Origin: an uncultured Poribacteria bacterium
Lineage (GTDB): Bacteria; Poribacteria; WGA-4E; WGA-3G
DNA: 64,000 nt
Reading direction: 5' to 3'
Assembly: GCA_951813565.1 (NCBI GenBank)
Contig: OX638351.1
Span: 608,001-672,000 of the forward strand
The position numbers and the translations under genes are program-made. Below are positions 32,275 through 43,580 of this stretch, in pieces. The first letter of the stretch is position 1, and each line of letters opens with the position of its first letter. The notes beneath the pieces were generated by a model. The model was not told the DNA's origin and searched no databases. It worked only from the letters and a program-made list of their open reading frames with translations.

Positions 32275-32526
32275 TTAGACTCTCTGCCAAGCAATTTTCA
32301 ACATCTCGTTAGCATAATCCTGACCAGATGTTGGCAAAGGTAGGGTTTTACCCTCGCTCTGGTATTGATCAATTATCTCTTCAACGATGTCACACAATTC
32401 TGAAAAAACCTCTTGTTCGTCATCACCGTGACATCCACCATAAAAGAGGCCAGGACAACTACCAACATAGCACTGATCTTCATCAGACCATTCAACAATT
32501 TTTACGTAACGGGTACTTGGTTTCAT
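32275..32526 (-). CDS. hicB: HicB-family antitoxin
   Basis: YVKIVEWSDEDQCYVGSCPGL...HGDD...GKTLP. Confidence 0.8.
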   Translation of the reverse strand: MKPSTRYVKIVEWSDEDQCYVGSCPGLFYGGCHGDDEQEVFSELCDIVEEIIDQYQSEGKTLPLPTSGQDYANEMLKIAWQRV

Positions 32527-32720
32527 TTTTTTGATTCCTCAATAGCTGCTTTGACAACCCTTTCTTGATAGTGTTTTGCGTCCGAACCGAGCTGACCAGA
32601 AAGGATTACAAATTTCGAAACTTTGGGATGCACAAATTTTTTATGACTCCCTTTTCCACCACAGTTTACAAATCCAGCAGTTTCCAGGTCTTTAATGAGT
32701 TCTCTAATTTTACGAGGCAT
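32523..32720 (-). CDS. hicA: HicA-family mRNA interferase toxin
   Basis: ELIKDLETAGF...GKGSHKKFVHP; overlaps the hicB start. Confidence 0.85.
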   Translation of the reverse strand: MPRKIRELIKDLETAGFVNCGGKGSHKKFVHPKVSKFVILSGQLGSDAKHYQERVVKAAIEESKK

Positions 32721-35182: not shown

Positions 35183-35740
35183 CTAAAGATTATTAGCAAT
35201 GCGAATCTCTTCATCACTAAAACTTTCGTCATGCCATTCAGTGATACGCCATTCATCGTCTCTTTTTTCGAAGATAAACAGGTTATCGCCTTCCGCGAAC
35301 CATCCGACAAATCCACCTTCAAGTGACTCACCATCTGCCACAAAACCTTGGATTCTATAGTGATTTCGGACTTCGGCTTGCGTGCCATCTTTATTCATAG
35401 ATATTTCTGGTGGGATAGAGAGTTCTATTTCAATATCCTGAAATCGGCTAAAGACATGAATTGCAGAATCACGTTCGTCTCGAATATCATCAAATATGAG
35501 GTCGTCAGTTTTATCGCCGTCTGTTCCCCAGTCTGAGACGTATCGGAAACCTTGCGACCAGTAGGCACTCATGTAGGTTTCCACATCTTCAGTTTCATAA
35601 CCCTCTCGCCACCGTTTTAAAACACCGTTAATTGCTAAATAATCCTCAGATGACACCGGAATCTTATCAACGTCGCCACATCCAATAACAAACACCAATA
35701 ACGTGATTATACCACAAATTTTACCTAATTCCTGAAACAT
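35183..35740 (-). CDS. NTF2-like lipoprotein
   Basis: Lipobox VIGC; WREGYETEDVETYMSAY, FEKRDDEWRITEW. Confidence 0.7.
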   Translation of the reverse strand: MFQELGKICGIITLLVFVIGCGDVDKIPVSSEDYLAINGVLKRWREGYETEDVETYMSAYWSQGFRYVSDWGTDGDKTDDLIFDDIRDERDSAIHVFSRFQDIEIELSIPPEISMNKDGTQAEVRNHYRIQGFVADGESLEGGFVGWFAEGDNLFIFEKRDDEWRITEWHDESFSDEEIRIANNL

Positions 35741-35951
35741 TATGATTTCCTTTCAAACAAAGTACGGATGGCATGTTGGAGTGTGCCTGCTACCCTGTAT
35801 ATATTTATATTCCACCATACATAAACTATTATCCTTTTTATTTTTAGTTATCAACGGAATCCCTTTTCTTCAAAAAAACTTGCTAATGTCCTTGAAATTT
35901 CACATAATGAGCATAACGAAAATTTTCATTCCAAACCGGCCTGCCTTTTTA

Positions 35952-35981
35952 TGTAACCTTTTTGTCTTATTTTCATTCTTA
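35952..35981 (+). promoter_or_regulatory. ECF-type promoter upstream of the sigma gene
   Basis: TGTAAC-N16-CATTCTTA; same elements and spacing at 36746-36775. Confidence 0.7.
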
Positions 35982-36108
35982 ACTTACAATGAAGGTTCAA
36001 AAAGCAGAGATTCAAGGCAAATAAAATTAAGCGTTTCACAAAACAATAGACATCATTGAATCAAATGAATTTCAATTAAGTTATGACAGAAACTGAGGTT
36101 GTGGTGTA

Positions 36109-36726
36109 ATGGATGAGTTTCGTGACGAAGAATTGGTGCATCAAAATATAGGCGATGCTGATGACGGAGCATTTGAAATCCTCTATCACCGTTACGAGGG
36201 CCCACTCCTCAGTTTTTTCTATAGGCGCGTTGGCAATTGGGAAACCGCGCAAGACCTTGTGCAAGAGACATTTATTAAAGTGCATCAAAATCTACGGACA
36301 CTTCGGGACCCAAAAAGTTTTTCCAGTTGGCTGTTTAGCATCGCGCACCAACTCATTGCAGCGCACTTCCGCGAAGCCAAGAGAAAACTCGAAATCGGTT
36401 CACTTGAAAGGAATCCTGAAGCATATCTGGTTGACCTTGAACATCGTTCCCCAATTTATCGTATCATAGCGAAAGAACAGATGGAGATTGTCTATGCTTT
36501 AGCACAACGACTGCCAATTTCCGAGCAAGAAGTATTTGAAATGAAGCTGGCAAACCCCAAAATGATGTTGGAAGAAATTGCCAGTATGTTGAACATTTCT
36601 TTGCCAGCCACCAAAGTTCGGCTACATCGCGCAAAGAAAAAAGTTATTGCTTGGATGAAAGCGGAATATCCTGGTGAATTTGACCACATATTTGGAAAAC
36701 AAGAGGAGGCAAAACAGGTTGAATAG
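36109..36726 (+). CDS. ECF sigma-70 factor
   Basis: AFEILYHRY, AQDLVQETFIKV, SFSSWLFSIA, EEIASML...ATKVRLHRAK. Confidence 0.93.
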   Translation: MDEFRDEELVHQNIGDADDGAFEILYHRYEGPLLSFFYRRVGNWETAQDLVQETFIKVHQNLRTLRDPKSFSSWLFSIAHQLIAAHFREAKRKLEIGSLERNPEAYLVDLEHRSPIYRIIAKEQMEIVYALAQRLPISEQEVFEMKLANPKMMLEEIASMLNISLPATKVRLHRAKKKVIAWMKAEYPGEFDHIFGKQEEAKQVE

Positions 36727-36745
36727 TCCAGCAAAACGAATTTTA

Positions 36746-36775
36746 TGTAACCTTTTCAGCCGATTTGCATTCTTA
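36746..36775 (+). promoter_or_regulatory. ECF-type promoter upstream of the paralog array
   Basis: TGTAAC-N16-CATTCTTA followed by RBS AAAGGAG and ATG 36795. Confidence 0.7.
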
Positions 36776-36794
36776 CGCTAAAAGGAGAACACAC

Positions 36795-37517
36795 ATGACG
36801 CCGAATGATGTCAAGGAATTGCTAAAAACTTTAATTGCGGAGGAGGGATTATCGATTGATGTTATTGAAGTAACCCCTTCACAGGACTTAGACACATCGG
36901 ATTATACCACAGAGGGACGCATCAAAGATGTTATCCATCAATGGAACAAAGATGGTAAAATTTACACGCGTCATCCCGGGCGAGCAGAAATTATGGAATT
37001 CTATACCAAAACCGATTCTGCTTCGCCTGCAAAAGAATTGTTAGAATCCTTAGAAATTGAAGCACTCCTTGAATCTATCATAACAGAACAGAAATTGCCT
37101 ATCTGTTTCACCGATCATGGTTTCCGATTGGTTACATTGGCTGAGGATGACACAACGCGGTACCCTGTCAAAATTCTTCACGGTGGATTTCGGTTAGAAA
37201 AAAAACAGGGGGCTAAGGTTCTGTCAACGCAGCTTGATGGGGTGGCAAATCGCTTTGAAATGCTCCTAAAGGAAAAACGTATCAAGGCGAAATTGTTCCA
37301 CCGAGGTTTCAGATTAGAGAAGACTTCTGAAGTGAACATACCTCTCTCAAAAGTTGATGAGATTGCAAAACGGATAGATGATACTCTCGGCATCAACTAT
37401 GTGTTGGATTCATACAACACACCACCTTCCGAGGAAGTCTTTAAATCTACGAGTTGCACAAGTGCCAATATCCGAATTTCTTTGTGGCGTTTCCCACGAC
37501 GCCAATGGAAAAGTTGA
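36795..37517 (+). CDS. Hypothetical protein, paralog 1 of an unrecognised repeat family
   Basis: Strong RBS; MxPNxVxxLLxxLIxE start and repeated HxGFxL motifs shared with the next two genes. Confidence 0.85.
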   Translation: MTPNDVKELLKTLIAEEGLSIDVIEVTPSQDLDTSDYTTEGRIKDVIHQWNKDGKIYTRHPGRAEIMEFYTKTDSASPAKELLESLEIEALLESIITEQKLPICFTDHGFRLVTLAEDDTTRYPVKILHGGFRLEKKQGAKVLSTQLDGVANRFEMLLKEKRIKAKLFHRGFRLEKTSEVNIPLSKVDEIAKRIDDTLGINYVLDSYNTPPSEEVFKSTSCTSANIRISLWRFPRRQWKS

Positions 37518-37564
37518 AAGACTATACTTTACTGCAACCTGATTCTACGATAGGAGGTTGAATT

Positions 37565-38377
37565 ATGGATCCCAATGATGTTAACGAATTACTGAGATCC
37601 TTGATTAACGAATTTGCCCTATCAATCACCTCTGTCGAAAAAGGCCCTCTATTGATCTCTGAAGATGACAATCCTGTTTCGAGATCATACACGGAGAATA
37701 TAATTAGACGGTGGAAGGGAGATGAAATCGCGGAAAAATTAAAAAAATTTACAATCAGTGGACATTGGTGTCTTTCAAGAGGGCGTAAGATTTCTGATGT
37801 ATATGACGAAGTAGAACATTTAGCGTCAAATTCAACTCGTATTGCGGAAGTTAAGGAGGTACTCCGATCCTTAATTAAAGAACGAGAGCTACCTTTCAAT
37901 ATCCTTCACTTACGGTTTACAGTAGTTATTCTCCCGGATGATCCGATGCAATTCCGTACTGACGATATGGTAGAACTTGAGACCCTGCAGGAGCGGATGA
38001 CCCTTGAAGGATGTTTCGGAGAAGATAATACCAACTTTCATGTCCGTCACGCAGGTTTTTCCCTATATCCAAAGGAAGATGCCCCCGATGTCCAGTATTC
38101 AAAGGTGCAGGAAGCAGCACTGCGTTTACAATCTAAAATAGGAAAGCACGGACTACAAGTGAGATTGATCCATAACGGTTTTCAATTAGAGAAAGACAGA
38201 GAAGTTGAGATAAATGTCGCGGAGGCTAAGGAATTGGCATCCCGTTTAATGTTTATGACAGGTATTGATTATAGTGTAGGAGCTTACGGTATGGGACCTA
38301 AAAAGGGTGTGAAGCCTGGATGGACACACACAATTAATTGGAAACACGCACGGGTAAGTTCATCCCGGCCCTGGTAA
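37565..38377 (+). CDS. Hypothetical protein, paralog 2
   Basis: RBS AGGAGG; MDPNDVNELLRSLINE, HAGFSL, HNGFQLEK. Confidence 0.85.
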   Translation: MDPNDVNELLRSLINEFALSITSVEKGPLLISEDDNPVSRSYTENIIRRWKGDEIAEKLKKFTISGHWCLSRGRKISDVYDEVEHLASNSTRIAEVKEVLRSLIKERELPFNILHLRFTVVILPDDPMQFRTDDMVELETLQERMTLEGCFGEDNTNFHVRHAGFSLYPKEDAPDVQYSKVQEAALRLQSKIGKHGLQVRLIHNGFQLEKDREVEINVAEAKELASRLMFMTGIDYSVGAYGMGPKKGVKPGWTHTINWKHARVSSSRPW

Positions 38378-38405
38378 CTTTAACAACACAAAAGGAGTAT
38401 AAATT

Positions 38406-39149
38406 ATGAACCCAAATAAAGTTAAGGCATTACTCAACACTTTGATCAACGAACTCAAATTACCAATCCATGTTTCTGTTTCTCATAATGGACCTACATT
38501 AGTTTTTGGACCGGGAAGTAGTTCAACACGATCACGAGCAAAAAATGTGTTAGAACACTGGTCTGATGGAGGCAAGCGTAGTTGGGTCATTTCTGTCGGA
38601 CTGCCTGTGAAAGAGAGGGATAAGGCAGCAACGCGCCTTGCTTTGGACACACATCGCACGACAGAGATAAGGCATATATTGGAATCATTAATCGCTGAAC
38701 AAACACTCCCTTTGACCGTTGTTGATGGTGGTTTTCAATTGGAAATCCTAACTGATGAAGGGATAGACTATTGCAGTGAAGATATGATGCAACTGGAAGC
38801 ACTTTTAACAAAAGAGGGCATAGATGTTCCAGTACGTCATAGCGGTTTTAGTTTACGACACAAGGAAGATGATGGTGAACTTCTGTTTTCGGAAGTCAAT
38901 ACACTGGCAAATCATCTCTCGTCTTTATTAGTAGAACACGGGTTACATGTGCGATTGCTCCATAATGGTTTTAGACTACATAAAGACCAAGACGACGCAA
39001 TAGATATTGCAGAAGTGAAGGAACTCATCTACCGATTAAAGATTATGGTAGGTATCCGCTATATCCAAGATGGTTGTGATTATTCGAATGACGTGTCAAA
39101 CCCTGAAATTCATTGGAAATCTGCTGACGTGAATACCGCCTTCCCATAG
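38406..39149 (+). CDS. Hypothetical protein, paralog 3
   Basis: RBS AAGGAG; MNPNKVKALLNTLINE, HSGFSL, HNGFRL. Confidence 0.85.
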   Translation: MNPNKVKALLNTLINELKLPIHVSVSHNGPTLVFGPGSSSTRSRAKNVLEHWSDGGKRSWVISVGLPVKERDKAATRLALDTHRTTEIRHILESLIAEQTLPLTVVDGGFQLEILTDEGIDYCSEDMMQLEALLTKEGIDVPVRHSGFSLRHKEDDGELLFSEVNTLANHLSSLLVEHGLHVRLLHNGFRLHKDQDDAIDIAEVKELIYRLKIMVGIRYIQDGCDYSNDVSNPEIHWKSADVNTAFP

Positions 39150-39193
39150 TTTCTAAATAGAACATCGGATTAACATGTGTGCTAATCCTTGTC

Positions 39194-39220
39194 GGAACTC
39201 ATAAAATAACAAACCGTCCA
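39194..39220 (+). promoter_or_regulatory. Candidate ECF-type promoter before ferredoxin 1
   Basis: GGAACT-N16-GTCCA, equivalent to AAC-N16-CGTC. Confidence 0.4.
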
Positions 39221-39250
39221 GTCAAAACATATAAAAGAAGGAATTCTGCA

Positions 39251-39514
39251 ATGACCTATGTAATTTGCGAACCTTGCATTGATGTAAAAGATCACGCTTG
39301 TGCTGAAATATGCCCTGTTGAATGTATTCACCCAATGCGTGACGAAAACCCAGACGAATTTGAAGAAGTAGAACAACTCTATATTGATCCTGAAGAATGT
39401 ATTGATTGTGCTATATGCGAACCTGCATGTCCTGTTGAGGCTATCTTCATAGAAGAGGATGTGCCAGAAGAATGGGAACACTGTATAAAAATAAACGCTG
39501 ATTATTTCCAATAA
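39251..39514 (+). CDS. FdxA-type (7Fe) ferredoxin 1
   Basis: MTYVICEPC...CAEICPVECI...YIDPEECIDCAICEPACPVEAI. Confidence 0.92.
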   Translation: MTYVICEPCIDVKDHACAEICPVECIHPMRDENPDEFEEVEQLYIDPEECIDCAICEPACPVEAIFIEEDVPEEWEHCIKINADYFQ

Positions 39515-39568
39515 TAAAAAATCAATTGACAATATGTTAGTAAATACACATAATAGGAGTACAGTTAA

Positions 39569-39850
39569 ATGACTTACGTAATTTGTGAGCCGTGCGTTGA
39601 TGTAAAAGACAGTGCCTGTGTTGATATTTGCCCTTGTGATTCCATCCGCCCACACCCAAGGGAGGAATCCGAGGACTATGAAGGAGTAAATCAACTCTTC
39701 ATTGACCCAGAAACATGTATCGAATGTGGTGTGTGTGAACCGGAATGCCCTATTGAAGCAATCTTTTTTGATGAGGATGTTCCTGAACAATGGAAACATT
39801 CCATACAAATAAACGCTGATTATTTCAATAAACAACAACTTAGTGTCTAA
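39569..39850 (+). CDS. FdxA-type (7Fe) ferredoxin 2
   Basis: MTYVICEPC...CVDICPCDSI...CIECGVCEPECP. Confidence 0.92.
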   Translation: MTYVICEPCVDVKDSACVDICPCDSIRPHPREESEDYEGVNQLFIDPETCIECGVCEPECPIEAIFFDEDVPEQWKHSIQINADYFNKQQLSV

Positions 39851-39881
39851 GCAAAAAAACAAACGAAAGGAGAACGACAAA

Positions 39882-40145
39882 ATGACGTATGTAATTTGCG
39901 AACCTTGCATAGATGAAAAAGACAGCTCTTGTGTTGATGTCTGTCCAGTAGATTGCATTCACCCGCATCCAACAGATGCACCTGACGACTTCGAAGAAGT
40001 AGACATGCTCTACATCGATCCGGAAGAATGCATCGATTGTGGCGTATGCGAACCGGAATGCCCCGTTGAAGCTATCTTTATGGAAGAAGATTTGCCGGAA
40101 GAATGGGAACATTTCATAGAGATTAACGCTGCATATTTTGAGTAA
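39882..40145 (+). CDS. FdxA-type (7Fe) ferredoxin 3
   Basis: RBS AAGGAG; MTYVICEPC...CVDVCPVDCI...CIDCGVCEPECP. Confidence 0.92.
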   Translation: MTYVICEPCIDEKDSSCVDVCPVDCIHPHPTDAPDDFEEVDMLYIDPEECIDCGVCEPECPVEAIFMEEDLPEEWEHFIEINAAYFE

Positions 40146-40332
40146 ATAGCACCGAATTGATTGCTTGTCAGTCAAAAACTAAGGGTGTTGTCTTAACATT
40201 ATTTGATATACGTGTGGGTTTTAATCATAAAATCTATGCTATATCATTCGTTAGGCAACACCTTCTTTTTATTAAAAGATGTAAATATTCGCTGGACAAA
40301 CAAAGGTTAAAAACGCGATACTAAATTTAGAT

Positions 40333-40434
40333 TATGGTGAATTATAAAAATAAATAGACACTTGCGTCCCCGGTAGGCGAGGTTTCCTAACCTCGCTGGT
40401 GCAGAGTGCCCAAGTAATTCCAAAGTCTACCATA
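40333..40434. repeat. MITE-like element with REP core
   Basis: TATGGTGAATT...AGTCTACCATA ends; core GTAGGCGAGGTT-TCCT-AACCTCGC; similar shell at 46896-47031. Confidence 0.6.
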
Positions 40435-40475
40435 AATGCATCCTAAATGAATAACGTACACCTCGGAGAACAATT

Positions 40476-42818
40476 ATGAGTATGAGAGAAAAATACGATT
40501 CTACAGATTTCTGGTATACGTTCATCAATTCACTCCATAACGAGGGACTCTCAGCTGGTAGGGGCGAATTGGAAATGGACGAGGAAATGCAGAAAAAACT
40601 TCTCGCTTACCTCAAAGAAAATATTGAAAAGGGAGTTACAAACGAGGAAACGGTACTCCCACCTACTCTTTCCGACTATTTATCGCGTTTTCCACAAGAA
40701 ATGCTGCCAAAGCTGCAGTCATTAGCAGAAAGTTTTCTTGACACGGATCCTGACAATGGACCAGCATCCGTGCTATTGGCAACTGTTGCCTATACGGAGA
40801 TGGGAAGTATCGGATCATTGCCGTTTGTAGGAAAAGCATTAACACTTGTGCCAAAAGATCTATGTCTGAATTTACTTATAATTTACAAGTACGGGAGGAA
40901 CTGCGGAGCCGCGGAACAAATTATTCTCACTGTACTTGAAAACGTATTTGAGTGGGCAAAACAACAAGATAATTCTGCCCGTTACCATGAAGTGAGAAAT
41001 TTCTATCGGCGACATAGAGTAACACCTTATTCAGTATATACAAGACTAAAAACATTCGATAAACGATATTGGGAAAAGCGAGAAGGGGACAGGATTATGG
41101 GAATAGGTGAAGGTAAAGGTACAATTGGGAAATGTAGAGATTTGATATCCGAAGAACAAGCAGCATTTAACAAAGTAATGGTAGAAGAATCAGACAATCC
41201 AAACATCTTTGGTGAGGAAACATCTGAGAATACAGATTTTTGGGATGCTTATCTTGACACATTAGAAGACCGTGGACTTTCAGTACCCAGATGGAAACTG
41301 GTACCCAAGGTGCAAGAAAAACTTTTAGATTACTTCAAGACAAAAATAGAAGCTGGGGTTATTGACGGTCTGACTACGTTACCATCACAACTTCCAGAGT
41401 ACGTTCCACTGTTCCCTGATGCGATGCTTCTGGAGCTGAGAGAATTCGCTGAAGAGGTATATGAAAAACAACCTGAAAATGGTGCTGCAGCAAAAATGTT
41501 AGCGGTAATTGAGCAGAAAGGTTATATTACATTTAATGAACAAGCAATCACTTTGGCACCTAATGACGCAGAAATCTGCTTTTATGCAATTAGTTATAAT
41601 ACTTCGCTTACGTTACTTGAAAAGTTGTTTGAAAGGGCACAACGACGAGGCGAATCAGAATTGTACCATTGGTTAGTAAGACTTTACAAAGAGATAGGTA
41701 CAACACCATGTGTTAGTTACCGGAAGTTGATGAAAAGTTCCGAGGGAAACGTAGAGTTGATTACACGGTATAAAGCATTGATTGTGCAAGCACAACAGAC
41801 TTTTGAGCATCGTCTGGAACAGGAACCTGATGACTGGTATGCTCTACGCGGACTCGGTGATATTTATGAAACGTTGGGTGAGACCGAATTGACACAAAAA
41901 TATCCGTGGGAGGGACATTCAGATACAAAGATTGCATGGCAACAGAAAGCATGGGTTGGCAGAAAACTGCCAGATTTTTCAGCGACTCCACTTGATGGCA
42001 CACCTATATCTGTATCGGATTACCGTGGTAAAATGTTAGTGCTAAATTTCTGTGCGAAATGGTGCGGTTTTTGTGCGCCTGAAATTCCTTATCTCAAAAA
42101 AGTCTATGAGGAACATCACGACAAAGGGTTAGAAGTTATTGGTGTGAGTCTTGACGAAAACGAAGCGGAACTATGTGAGTTTATTGACGCACATGATATA
42201 CCGTGGCCAAATATCTTTGATGGAAAAGGTTGGGAAAGTGACCTTGCTCGGTATTTTGGAATAAATAGTGTTCCTTCGCAATGGCTTATTGACAGGGATG
42301 GGACAATTATATCAGTTGGAACTAGACGAGAGACATTGGGACAACTCGTGAAGTGGGCAGAAGCATCGCGTGTTGGTAACCTGGTTCCGGATTTCTCAGC
42401 AGTTGATGTAGATGGGAATCTTGTTTCACCCTCGGCATATCGCGGTAAAGTTGTATTACTCTATTTTTGGACAAGCCAAGACTACTGTGAAAAAGAACTA
42501 ACTTATATGGACGCAGTCTATCAAAAATATCACACCAAGGGATTTGACATTGTCGATGTCAACATTGCAGGATGGAAAAATGAAGAAGATTTTCACCGAT
42601 TACTCAGTAAAAAAAACTATCAAGGCCACCATATCTATGATGGAGGCAAATTGAAACAGGGTCCACTTGCTCAGCAATTTGCCATTCAAGAAATCCCTAC
42701 ACTTCTGCTGATAGATACCGATGGTAAAATTATTGATGCACGGTCAGGAAAAGTACATTCACCTGAAGCATGGACTGCAAGATTAGAAAAGCTTGTGGCT
42801 ACACATCTTGGAATGTGA
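40476..42818 (+). CDS. TlpA/redoxin-domain protein with duplicated helical N-terminal domains and two thioredoxin-like domains
   Basis: PDFSA...DYRGKMLVLNFCAKWCGFC; second domain YRGKVVLLYFWTSQDYC; two TDFW...L...GLS units. Confidence 0.85.
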   Translation: MSMREKYDSTDFWYTFINSLHNEGLSAGRGELEMDEEMQKKLLAYLKENIEKGVTNEETVLPPTLSDYLSRFPQEMLPKLQSLAESFLDTDPDNGPASVLLATVAYTEMGSIGSLPFVGKALTLVPKDLCLNLLIIYKYGRNCGAAEQIILTVLENVFEWAKQQDNSARYHEVRNFYRRHRVTPYSVYTRLKTFDKRYWEKREGDRIMGIGEGKGTIGKCRDLISEEQAAFNKVMVEESDNPNIFGEETSENTDFWDAYLDTLEDRGLSVPRWKLVPKVQEKLLDYFKTKIEAGVIDGLTTLPSQLPEYVPLFPDAMLLELREFAEEVYEKQPENGAAAKMLAVIEQKGYITFNEQAITLAPNDAEICFYAISYNTSLTLLEKLFERAQRRGESELYHWLVRLYKEIGTTPCVSYRKLMKSSEGNVELITRYKALIVQAQQTFEHRLEQEPDDWYALRGLGDIYETLGETELTQKYPWEGHSDTKIAWQQKAWVGRKLPDFSATPLDGTPISVSDYRGKMLVLNFCAKWCGFCAPEIPYLKKVYEEHHDKGLEVIGVSLDENEAELCEFIDAHDIPWPNIFDGKGWESDLARYFGINSVPSQWLIDRDGTIISVGTRRETLGQLVKWAEASRVGNLVPDFSAVDVDGNLVSPSAYRGKVVLLYFWTSQDYCEKELTYMDAVYQKYHTKGFDIVDVNIAGWKNEEDFHRLLSKKNYQGHHIYDGGKLKQGPLAQQFAIQEIPTLLLIDTDGKIIDARSGKVHSPEAWTARLEKLVATHLGM

Positions 42819-42845
42819 TAGAATAGAAGGTAGGAGGGAACTGTT

Positions 42846-43304
42846 ATGGCGTATTTCATCACTGACGAATGCATCGGGTGTCTGCAGTGTCTATGTAAAT
42901 GTCCGGTAGATGCAATTACTGGTGATCGTGGTAAGTTGCACATCATTGACCCGGATGTGTGTATTGATTGTAGTGCTTGTGGGATGGTGTGTCCGGTGGA
43001 AGCAATTCACGACCAATTCGGGGAAGTGTGTAAATTTATCAAACCTCTCTCACATCGCCCTATAGCCGTTATCTATGAGGAACTATGTTCCGGATGTGAT
43101 TTCTGTGTTCAGATATGCCCTTGGGAGTGCCTTGAAATAATAAACCCGGTTACAAATGAACATGCAGATAGTTTCTTTGGTATTTGTGAACTTGTGAAAC
43201 CGAAGGATTGTGTCGGTTGTAAGCTTTGCGAAGAAGTTTGTATCAAGGACGCTATCCGAGTTGAATCGCCAGTGTTATTGGAACTCGCTGAGGCTGCAGA
43301 TTGA
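42846..43304 (+). CDS. Polyferredoxin with four [4Fe-4S] motifs
   Basis: Four CxxCxxCxxxC motifs. Confidence 0.9.
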   Translation: MAYFITDECIGCLQCLCKCPVDAITGDRGKLHIIDPDVCIDCSACGMVCPVEAIHDQFGEVCKFIKPLSHRPIAVIYEELCSGCDFCVQICPWECLEIINPVTNEHADSFFGICELVKPKDCVGCKLCEEVCIKDAIRVESPVLLELAEAAD

Positions 43305-43409: not shown

Positions 43410-43416
43410 GGAAAGA

Positions 43417-43491
43417 TACCCCCGACGAGATTTGAACTCGTGTCGCCGCCGTGAAAGGGCGGTGTCCTTGGCCAGGCTAGACGACGGGGGC
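43417..43491 (-). tRNA. tRNA-Glu (TTC)
   Basis: GCCCCCG acceptor stem; anticodon arm CCGCC-CTTTCAC-GGCGG; T-loop GTTCAAATC; CCA not encoded. Confidence 0.95.
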
Positions 43492-43507
43492 ATATAGAAA
43501 AAATGAA

Positions 43508-43580
43508 TGAGCCGTACAGGAGTCGAACCTGTGACCACCTGATTAAAAGTCAGATGCTCTACCAGCTGAGCTAACGGCTC
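43508..43580 (-). tRNA. tRNA-Lys (TTT)
   Basis: GAGCCGT...TAGCTCAGCTGGTAGAGC; anticodon loop CTTTTAA; GGTTCGACTCC. Confidence 0.95.

Follow-up and report, generated by a model that had tools for sequence, protein, structure and literature searches.

We analysed a 64,000-nt stretch of the genome of an uncultured bacterium of the candidate phylum Poribacteria (contig OX638351.1, positions 608,001 to 672,000; hereafter the window). Nine co-oriented open reading frames on its forward strand, from position 36109 to 43304, encode a sigma factor of the extracytoplasmic function (ECF) type, three paralogous proteins (U1 to U3), three ferredoxins (F1 to F3), a TlpA-like redoxin and a polyferredoxin. 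We found that the U proteins form a new family in a real, lineage-restricted ECF regulon, and that the conserved core of this module, namely the sigma factor, the U array and FdxA-type ferredoxins, is smaller than the nine genes. As to function, we tentatively propose a regulon confined to one bacterial family, in which the sigma factor would drive its own gene, the U array and F1, and in which the U proteins may be histidine-metal effectors working with F1. The nine genes had been described in an earlier reading made from this DNA alone (the sequence-only reading), and both the open reading frames and our family scans agreed with that description. The source genome is a single 5.43-Mb contig. 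Two further DNA runs, by their record from a second study, cover the stretch with few substitutions and no indels, and one of their contigs spans 35486-40036; because these runs reproduce the stretch, we regard the locus as not mis-assembled.

The sigma gene (36109..36726; this and all module features below are on the forward strand unless stated) encodes 205 amino acids (aa) and belongs to a lineage-specific orthologue group. Its product has the two domains of an ECF (group 4) sigma factor, Sigma70_r2 (63.6 bits) and r4_2 (30.5 bits), both above the Pfam cut-offs, and it scored 77 bits against TIGR02937 (cut-off 42.9). Among the best 25 of its 87 NCBIfam rows it stayed below the cut-off of every named ECF equivalog or subfamily (SigW, SigX, SigM, RpoE, BldN), and the superfamily model alone passed. 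A predicted ECF promoter with -35 and -10 boxes (P1, 35951..35979) stands 5' of the sigma gene and the same motif (P2, 36745..36773) stands 5' of U1, as the sequence-only reading had stated.

To see how far this arrangement is kept, we read 55 of 71 array-bearing loci: the window locus, all 37 others of its genus, that of genome G107, and 16 of 32 in the genus g13. A partial second-site U copy in G016 was excluded from this count, and two further genomes, G134 and G004, were viewed separately. The P1 motif stands before the sigma gene, or before a TlpA gene that comes ahead of it, in 54 of the 55 loci, the contig of the 55th beginning inside the sigma gene; a bipartite motif 5' of the sigma factor's own gene, the mark of ECF autoregulation, was thereby found in silico in 54 of 55. 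P2 likewise precedes U1 in 54 loci, and G018 has a variant that differs by one base. We built a weight matrix from 81 homologous sites and applied a threshold of 14 bits. In the whole 5.43-Mb genome only P1 and P2 scored above 14 bits, and the reversed genome gave no site. Across 176 genomes of the phylum, the promoter pattern and the U profile marked one and the same set of 72 genomes; the remaining 104 had no copy of the pattern, nor did the reversed control.

The order sigma-U-ferredoxin was kept in all 55 loci, in three genera, while the wider flanks changed. We looked for U homologues away from the sigma and ferredoxin genes, and found the U genes between the two in 55 of 55 loci, the partial copy of G016 left out. 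Together with the motif, this joint occurrence bears out the claim of a dedicated, probably autoregulated sigma module. Copy number varied, from 1 to 9 U genes and from 1 to 3 ferredoxins per locus. In these counts, split U genes were scored as two and the TGA-containing ferredoxin of G113, G149 and G155 was missed, the 3:3 figure for intact arrays being unchanged. The class-A gene, U1 in the window, comes first in the array and is the sole U gene in 4 loci, and class-B subfamilies are variously kept or lost. Of the 55 loci, 20 have a downstream TlpA gene, 115-5559 nt away, and 6 have a polyferredoxin within reach, some contigs stopping short of that distance.

The U profile, made from 96 sequences, matched 72 of the 176 genomes, all within the window's own family: 38 of 39 others of its genus, the single genome of one sister genus, 32 of 65 genomes of another, and none of 64 from other families. 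The match in G004, counted among the 72, was weak (E 0.006). A sigma orthologue was detected at E<=1e-35 in 71 genomes, which are the U-bearing set minus G004. Absence from an incomplete genome is no proof, yet many closed genomes lack the sigma factor, the motif and U. The U profile found 17 proteins among 1.84 billion representatives. A word-indexed search gave 218 matches out of 7,997 scored candidates, and among the 120 listed all those with an organism name were from Poribacteria; a metagenome scan yielded 4 loci out of 136 candidate stretches. Our literature searches, with subscription papers, a Poribacteria pangenome paper and supplements outside their scope, found no paper that names the module.

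Several loci appear to be in decay or rearranged. In G134 the N-terminus of the sigma factor runs into the C-terminus of U1 after an apparent deletion, and G004 retains P1 and the TlpA gene while a sigma gene was not found. IS200-type transposase genes lie within the module in G018 (L037:3653-4126), between the sigma gene and U1, and, as judged by clustering, in G025 (L043). Two loci, in G008 (L027) and G026 (L044), contain a second P2-U1 block inside the array. Because the U1 of this inner block is of a different subclade, the arrangement suggests that cassettes may have been exchanged between lineages.

We then considered the U proteins. U1 (36795..37517, 240 aa, class A) is an orphan and the most conserved member, and is followed by the class-B accessory paralogues U2 (37565..38377, 270 aa) and U3 (38406..39149, 247 aa), the latter with helix-hairpin repeats. 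The three are 27-34% identical in pairs (E 1e-20 to 1e-42). They matched no family above cut-off in Pfam or NCBIfam and no PHROG below E 0.04, a PDB sequence search returned four weak matches only (E>=0.016), and Protein Atlas gave no usable match for U3. The AlphaFold2 model of U3 (predicted local distance difference test score 90.6, predicted template modelling score 0.84) is built of helix-strand-strand units; that of U1 (80.4 and 0.79) has one helix fewer. Repeats 1, 3, 4 and 5 are homologous, with hhalign values of 93-98% for four pairs and of 81% and 8% for the two others; values among repeats 3-5 were 93-98%, and repeat 6 reached at most 42%. At equivalent hairpin positions of homologous repeats, the histidine at U3 position 145 is present in 96 of 96 sequences and that at 186 in 94 of 96. 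Glycines 147 and 188 of U3 are invariant, as are histidines 129 and 169 of U1. No membrane helix was detected in U and no cysteine is conserved, the best cysteine column reaching 25% overall and 69% in class A. Alignments and models together predict that U is soluble and built of helix-hairpin repeats, two of its histidines being near-invariant. Class-A proteins also keep invariant lysine or arginine residues, and the module ferredoxins are very acidic.

Structure searches gave no close relative. Foldseek returned no match at E<=0.001 for the U models against the PDB and viral models, and VIA-align gave none at Z>=8 for U3 or U1, which is no proof of a new fold, the N-terminal 75 residues of U3 being barely tested. 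VIA-align aligned only a subdomain of about 73-96 residues of U3 (best Z 6.9, 83 residues aligned, root-mean-square deviation 3.7), with the top matches tied among FtsK, EpsM, HAD caps and designed proteins; the best match of U1 had Z 5.5. These matches resemble permuted ferredoxin-like domains of alpha-beta-beta-alpha-beta-beta order (EpsM 1uv7, XcpY 6ghu, HAD caps, the H-NOX C-subdomain), on which about 73-96 U residues superpose at Z 5-6.9 and a deviation of 2.6-4.7. However, the match covers a third of U only, from distant chain segments, at Z values in the range of common arrangements, and no function follows from it. H-NOX and V4R ligand sensors scored Z 4.0-6.1, over a subdomain of 79-87 residues only and tied with unrelated folds. 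We had presumed a likeness to BON, STN, pentein or LAGLIDADG folds; these were absent from the best 50 rows shown.

One known family was tried and rejected. PSP1/RicT matched 10 of 96 U members at E<=0.05, the best at 2.3e-4, and U2 of the window scored 20.5 bits against a cut-off of 27. Against seven Poribacteria RicT sequences, hhalign probability was 0.2-1.2%. The family signature given in PMC6751060, the cysteine motif CX4CCX30CX4CC, is absent from U, which has no conserved cysteine. RicT/PSP1 itself occurs in 7 of the 176 genomes (L138-L144), all outside the order of the window's genome. The source labels "DUF1115" and "RelBE antitoxin", carried by two U homologues, found no support in the family scan.

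The ferredoxins F1 (39251..39514), F2 (39569..39850) and F3 (39882..40145) are mutually 63-72% identical and form stable orthologous groups within the genus. The closest PDB relatives of their alignment were the 7Fe ferredoxins 2v2k (M. smegmatis), 1h98 (T. thermophilus) and 1bc6 (E 5e-26 to 3e-24), with which they share both cysteine motifs of solved 7Fe ferredoxins, CxxxxxxxCxxxCP and CxxCxxCxxxCP, in invariant columns. They differ from these in an acidic loop insertion of 10 residues and in lacking the C-terminal extension (87-93 against 105 aa), and they scored below the FdxA equivalog cut-offs (NF045480, 87-95 bits against 125; NF045490, 65-80 against 135). We assign them to the 7Fe FdxA type of dicluster ferredoxins, for which one [3Fe-4S] and one [4Fe-4S] cluster are predicted. 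F2 has a shifted cysteine (CPC for CPVxC) and F3, 92-98% identical across the genus, is likely kept at a housekeeping level.

A promoter sets F2-F3 apart from F1. A sigma-70 promoter with 11 of 12 consensus matches (39526..39554) precedes F2-F3; such a promoter was found upstream of 35 of 36 F2 genes and at none of 106 other module ferredoxin starts, the first ferredoxin being without one in nearly all loci. Since the consensus promoter is confined to F2, exclusive dependence on the ECF sigma factor is predicted for U and F1 only, which leaves F1 as the one ferredoxin expected to be served by P2 and no other promoter. Further downstream, a dispersed repeat (approximately 40326..40445, no strand assigned) with up to 29 overlapping blastn matches in the genome, itself included, and a peak in read depth, together with a separate sigma-70-like element (40293..40322, 9 of 12 consensus matches), stands between F3 and the TlpA gene. 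An element resembling the latter precedes 7 of 21 long downstream TlpA genes examined. The sequence-only reading had missed both the promoter between F1 and F2 and the dispersed repeat. The TlpA gene (40476..42818) encodes a 780-aa protein with tetratricopeptide repeats (TPR), a member of a multi-copy family, and the polyferredoxin gene (42846..43304) has four Fer4 stretches predicted to bind four [4Fe-4S] clusters, with an 85%-identical paralogue elsewhere in the genome (L057; G000 C1:2971865-2972323), before a gene that by eye resembles guanylate kinase. Both genes are accessory, and we read them as separately expressed, optional neighbours of the module.

Across the order, the module ferredoxin family also occupies a second site, next to a GBBH-like-N gene, where tandem duplicates have arisen in genomes that lack the module (G102, G104, G106, G156, G038, G055). 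Many genomes of the genus gave four ferredoxin matches, fitting three module copies and a fusion protein. From these match counts, in which copies were not individually located, we infer that F2-F3 replaced the second site in the genus. The fusion protein has 430 aa and joins an FdxA-type ferredoxin to a hydrophobic domain without Pfam match (L058:4877-6169; G000 C1:3069876-3071168); such fusions also occur in two other families of the order and are present in most genomes. This second ferredoxin-like gene was considered as a relative of U and rejected, its membrane-domain fusion being unrelated to U.

In 4 of 112 genomes of the family, all in g13 (G113, G123, G149, G155; L096-L099), one module ferredoxin has a TGA codon at the second cysteine of CxxCxxCxxxCP, and the frame runs on to the normal end. 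Five of six pairs of these genes differ by 16-21 synonymous codons upstream, the other pair by 6. All four share a 15-base hairpin core whose exact form was found in none of 136 cysteine forms; six cysteine-form ferredoxins fold more stably than any TGA form. SelA was found in all 5 genomes tested, which include three TGA carriers, and a tRNA-Sec gene in the window genome, whose own F1-F3 carry cysteine at this position. We consider it likely that these are selenocysteine ferredoxins, with TGA at a [4Fe-4S] ligand position, a feature that sets them apart from known FdxA proteins. In parts 1-2 of 3 of PMC13188914, the table of 119 families includes HgcB, with another motif, and we found no FdxA-type ferredoxin in it, nor in the accessible part of PMC2398784.

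The redox theme of the module comes from genes that have come to stand behind the motif. In 25 of 54 loci, from both large genera, P1 and the sigma gene have a TPR-TlpA gene between them, usually with WCGPC; two of the 25 genes are fragments. Extra motif sites precede TlpA genes in G110 and G004, and in G110 the third site is directly followed by an 810-aa TlpA. Of 14 genomes checked, 4 (G018, G022, G025, G004) have the motif 137-218 nt before the gene for the Fe-S carrier Mrp/NBP35 (mrp/apbC); at these sites (L079:1054, L082, L084, L145) the boxes are kept and the spacers have diverged. Within g13, the TlpA N-domain family was found in 29 of the 32 genomes that have the module and in 10 of the 33 that lack it. 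The window protein has two thioredoxin-fold domains, the first with the CxxC of TlpA/ResA (WCGFC) and the second without CxxC. It resembles ResA (E 4e-46, below the cut-off of that model) in its CxxC thioredoxin fold and differs from it in a long helical/TPR N-domain and in the second domain. Hydropathy showed no N-terminal membrane anchor or signal of the TlpA/ResA kind in the module proteins, whose 19-residue maximum close to the N-terminus had a median of 0.18 and a highest value of 1.46. Extra motif sites in G015 (L080:1054-1425) and G025 (L081) precede a gene for a 118-123-aa protein that carries two CxxC-like pairs and matched nothing in Pfam. Thus the stress or redox character given to the module by the sequence-only reading receives indirect support from TlpA and mrp recruitment, whereas its extension to nine genes as one system does not stand, given the counts for TlpA and polyferredoxin and the separate promoter of F2-F3.

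In the mechanism that we propose, the sigma factor very probably reads both P1 and P2, which would set up a positive loop. From P2, a message carrying U1, U2, U3 and F1 would probably be made, with F2-F3 transcribed also from the housekeeping promoter as an everyday ferredoxin supply. Two sequencing runs presumed to be RNA placed no reads on the operon, which speaks neither for nor against its expression. Judging by the genes recruited behind the motif in relatives, we lean slightly towards Fe-S or thiol damage as the trigger. More tentatively, U may be the payload, with U1 as its indispensable core, class-B paralogues widening specificity and the histidine pair holding a metal. There is a precedent for a regulated 7Fe ferredoxin in M. 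tuberculosis, whose FdxA is described in PMC6469627 as a stress-induced gene of the DosR regulon, and as giving electrons to none of the P450s tested there; the module differs in its three stable paralogues and in its predicted control by an ECF sigma factor rather than a two-component system.

Several points weigh against this mechanism. Because the motif was built on module loci, finding it in them is partly circular, and genomes that are kin do not count as independent. The structure searches revealed no catalytic fold in U, whose conserved histidines may do no more than shape turns and which, lacking a conserved cysteine, is itself unlikely to hold an Fe-S cluster. The number of U genes does not match that of ferredoxins across loci. 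The mrp site is limited to one clade, being absent here and from the 10 other genomes checked, and it persists in G004, which has no detected sigma gene; other third motif sites stand before WD40 genes or the gene for the small CxxC protein, or have no clear gene behind them. TlpA genes form a scattered, multi-copy family of 1-9 matches per genome and occur also without the module (77 of 176 genomes), and tandem ferredoxins say little because tandem duplication arises also without it. The last two points, along with the promoter of F2-F3, would fit a real but non-redox regulon of sigma and U, in which U is a structural oligomer or a binder of nucleic acid or small molecules and the ferredoxins and redoxins are neighbours gained at this site; the U subdomain is as close to folds that form rings or dimers, with Z 6.8 for EpsM and 5.4-6.6 for phage tail terminators, as to any other. 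We think this rather unlikely, as all 55 loci, from three genera and with changing flanks, have one or more ferredoxins after the U array, the first ferredoxin nearly always lacks a consensus promoter, and TlpA has been placed between P1 and the sigma gene in both large genera. That all nine genes form one system, with three U proteins pairing with three ferredoxins, had been suggested by the 3+3 symmetry of the window. Co-orientation and the stable orthologous groups of F1-F3 agree with it, as does a weak correlation of U and ferredoxin counts (Spearman 0.44, with kin not independent, which may only reflect the difference between genera). Yet just 6 of the 55 loci have a 3:3 ratio, against 19 with 2:3, and the ratio rises to 9:3; TlpA and polyferredoxin are mostly missing, and an internal promoter and the dispersed repeat split the block. 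We take the symmetry for a chance state and the nine-gene system to be very improbable.

A regulatory role for U1 has also to be weighed. U1 could be a new soluble anti-sigma factor or sensor that keeps the sigma factor inactive and frees it once the U1 histidines sense a metal or redox signal, perhaps the ferredoxin state, with class-B paralogues as extra inputs and F1 and TlpA as the output. U1 is the first U gene 3' of the sigma gene in all 55 loci and sometimes the only one, it co-occurs with the sigma factor, and no other conserved regulator was seen in the loci read. According to PMC8999054, soluble anti-sigma factors are divergent and hard to recognise, and its ECF12 and ECF11 groups, exemplified by SigH/RshA and RpoE/ChrR, resemble the module in a sigma factor with its own upstream bipartite motif and a soluble protein encoded directly downstream; the thioredoxin-fold genes behind the motif in many relatives are a further likeness to such thiol and oxidative-stress systems. 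On the other hand, the U alignments lack the zinc motif of ZAS proteins of the RsrA/ChrR type (HxxxCxxC), the U models are alpha/beta rather than a helical anti-sigma domain, and the module differs from those systems in its paralogue array, its ferredoxin and its two predicted sites in the genome. Arrays of up to nine copies are not known for anti-sigma factors. An invariant C-terminal motif of the sigma factor, considered as a handle for U binding, was weakened as a candidate, since a similar motif is present in a sister ECF sigma factor without U nearby, leaving no handle specific to U. We regard an anti-sigma role as rather improbable on balance. In a further reading, which we consider quite improbable, U1 would found a new class of ferredoxin-gated regulators: built of repeats and binding a metal by its histidines, it would sense the redox or cluster state of a 7Fe ferredoxin and set the sigma factor free, with up to eight paralogues as alternative inputs and a selenocysteine-ligand ferredoxin tuning the set point in some species. 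The sister sigma factor (L103-L107) is about 40% identical and lies beside genes for apparently secreted proteins.

Outside the module, a divergent SnoaL-like protein (35183-35740, reverse strand; E 1.4e-4, below cut-off) is encoded 5' of it, as in 13 of 35 loci. We take a gene pair at 32275-32720 (reverse strand) to be HicA/HicB-like, and two sequences at about 43415-43580 (reverse strand) to be tRNA-like, both labels being given by eye.

An autoregulated ECF sigma factor with a small adjacent regulon is a known layout; the payload, the U family, is new. Although the organism is uncultured, the module should be rebuildable in a laboratory host, because predictions exist for the sigma factor, for the exact promoter it reads and for its few targets. 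A rebuilt system would yield a new class of ferredoxin partner or of anti-sigma factor.

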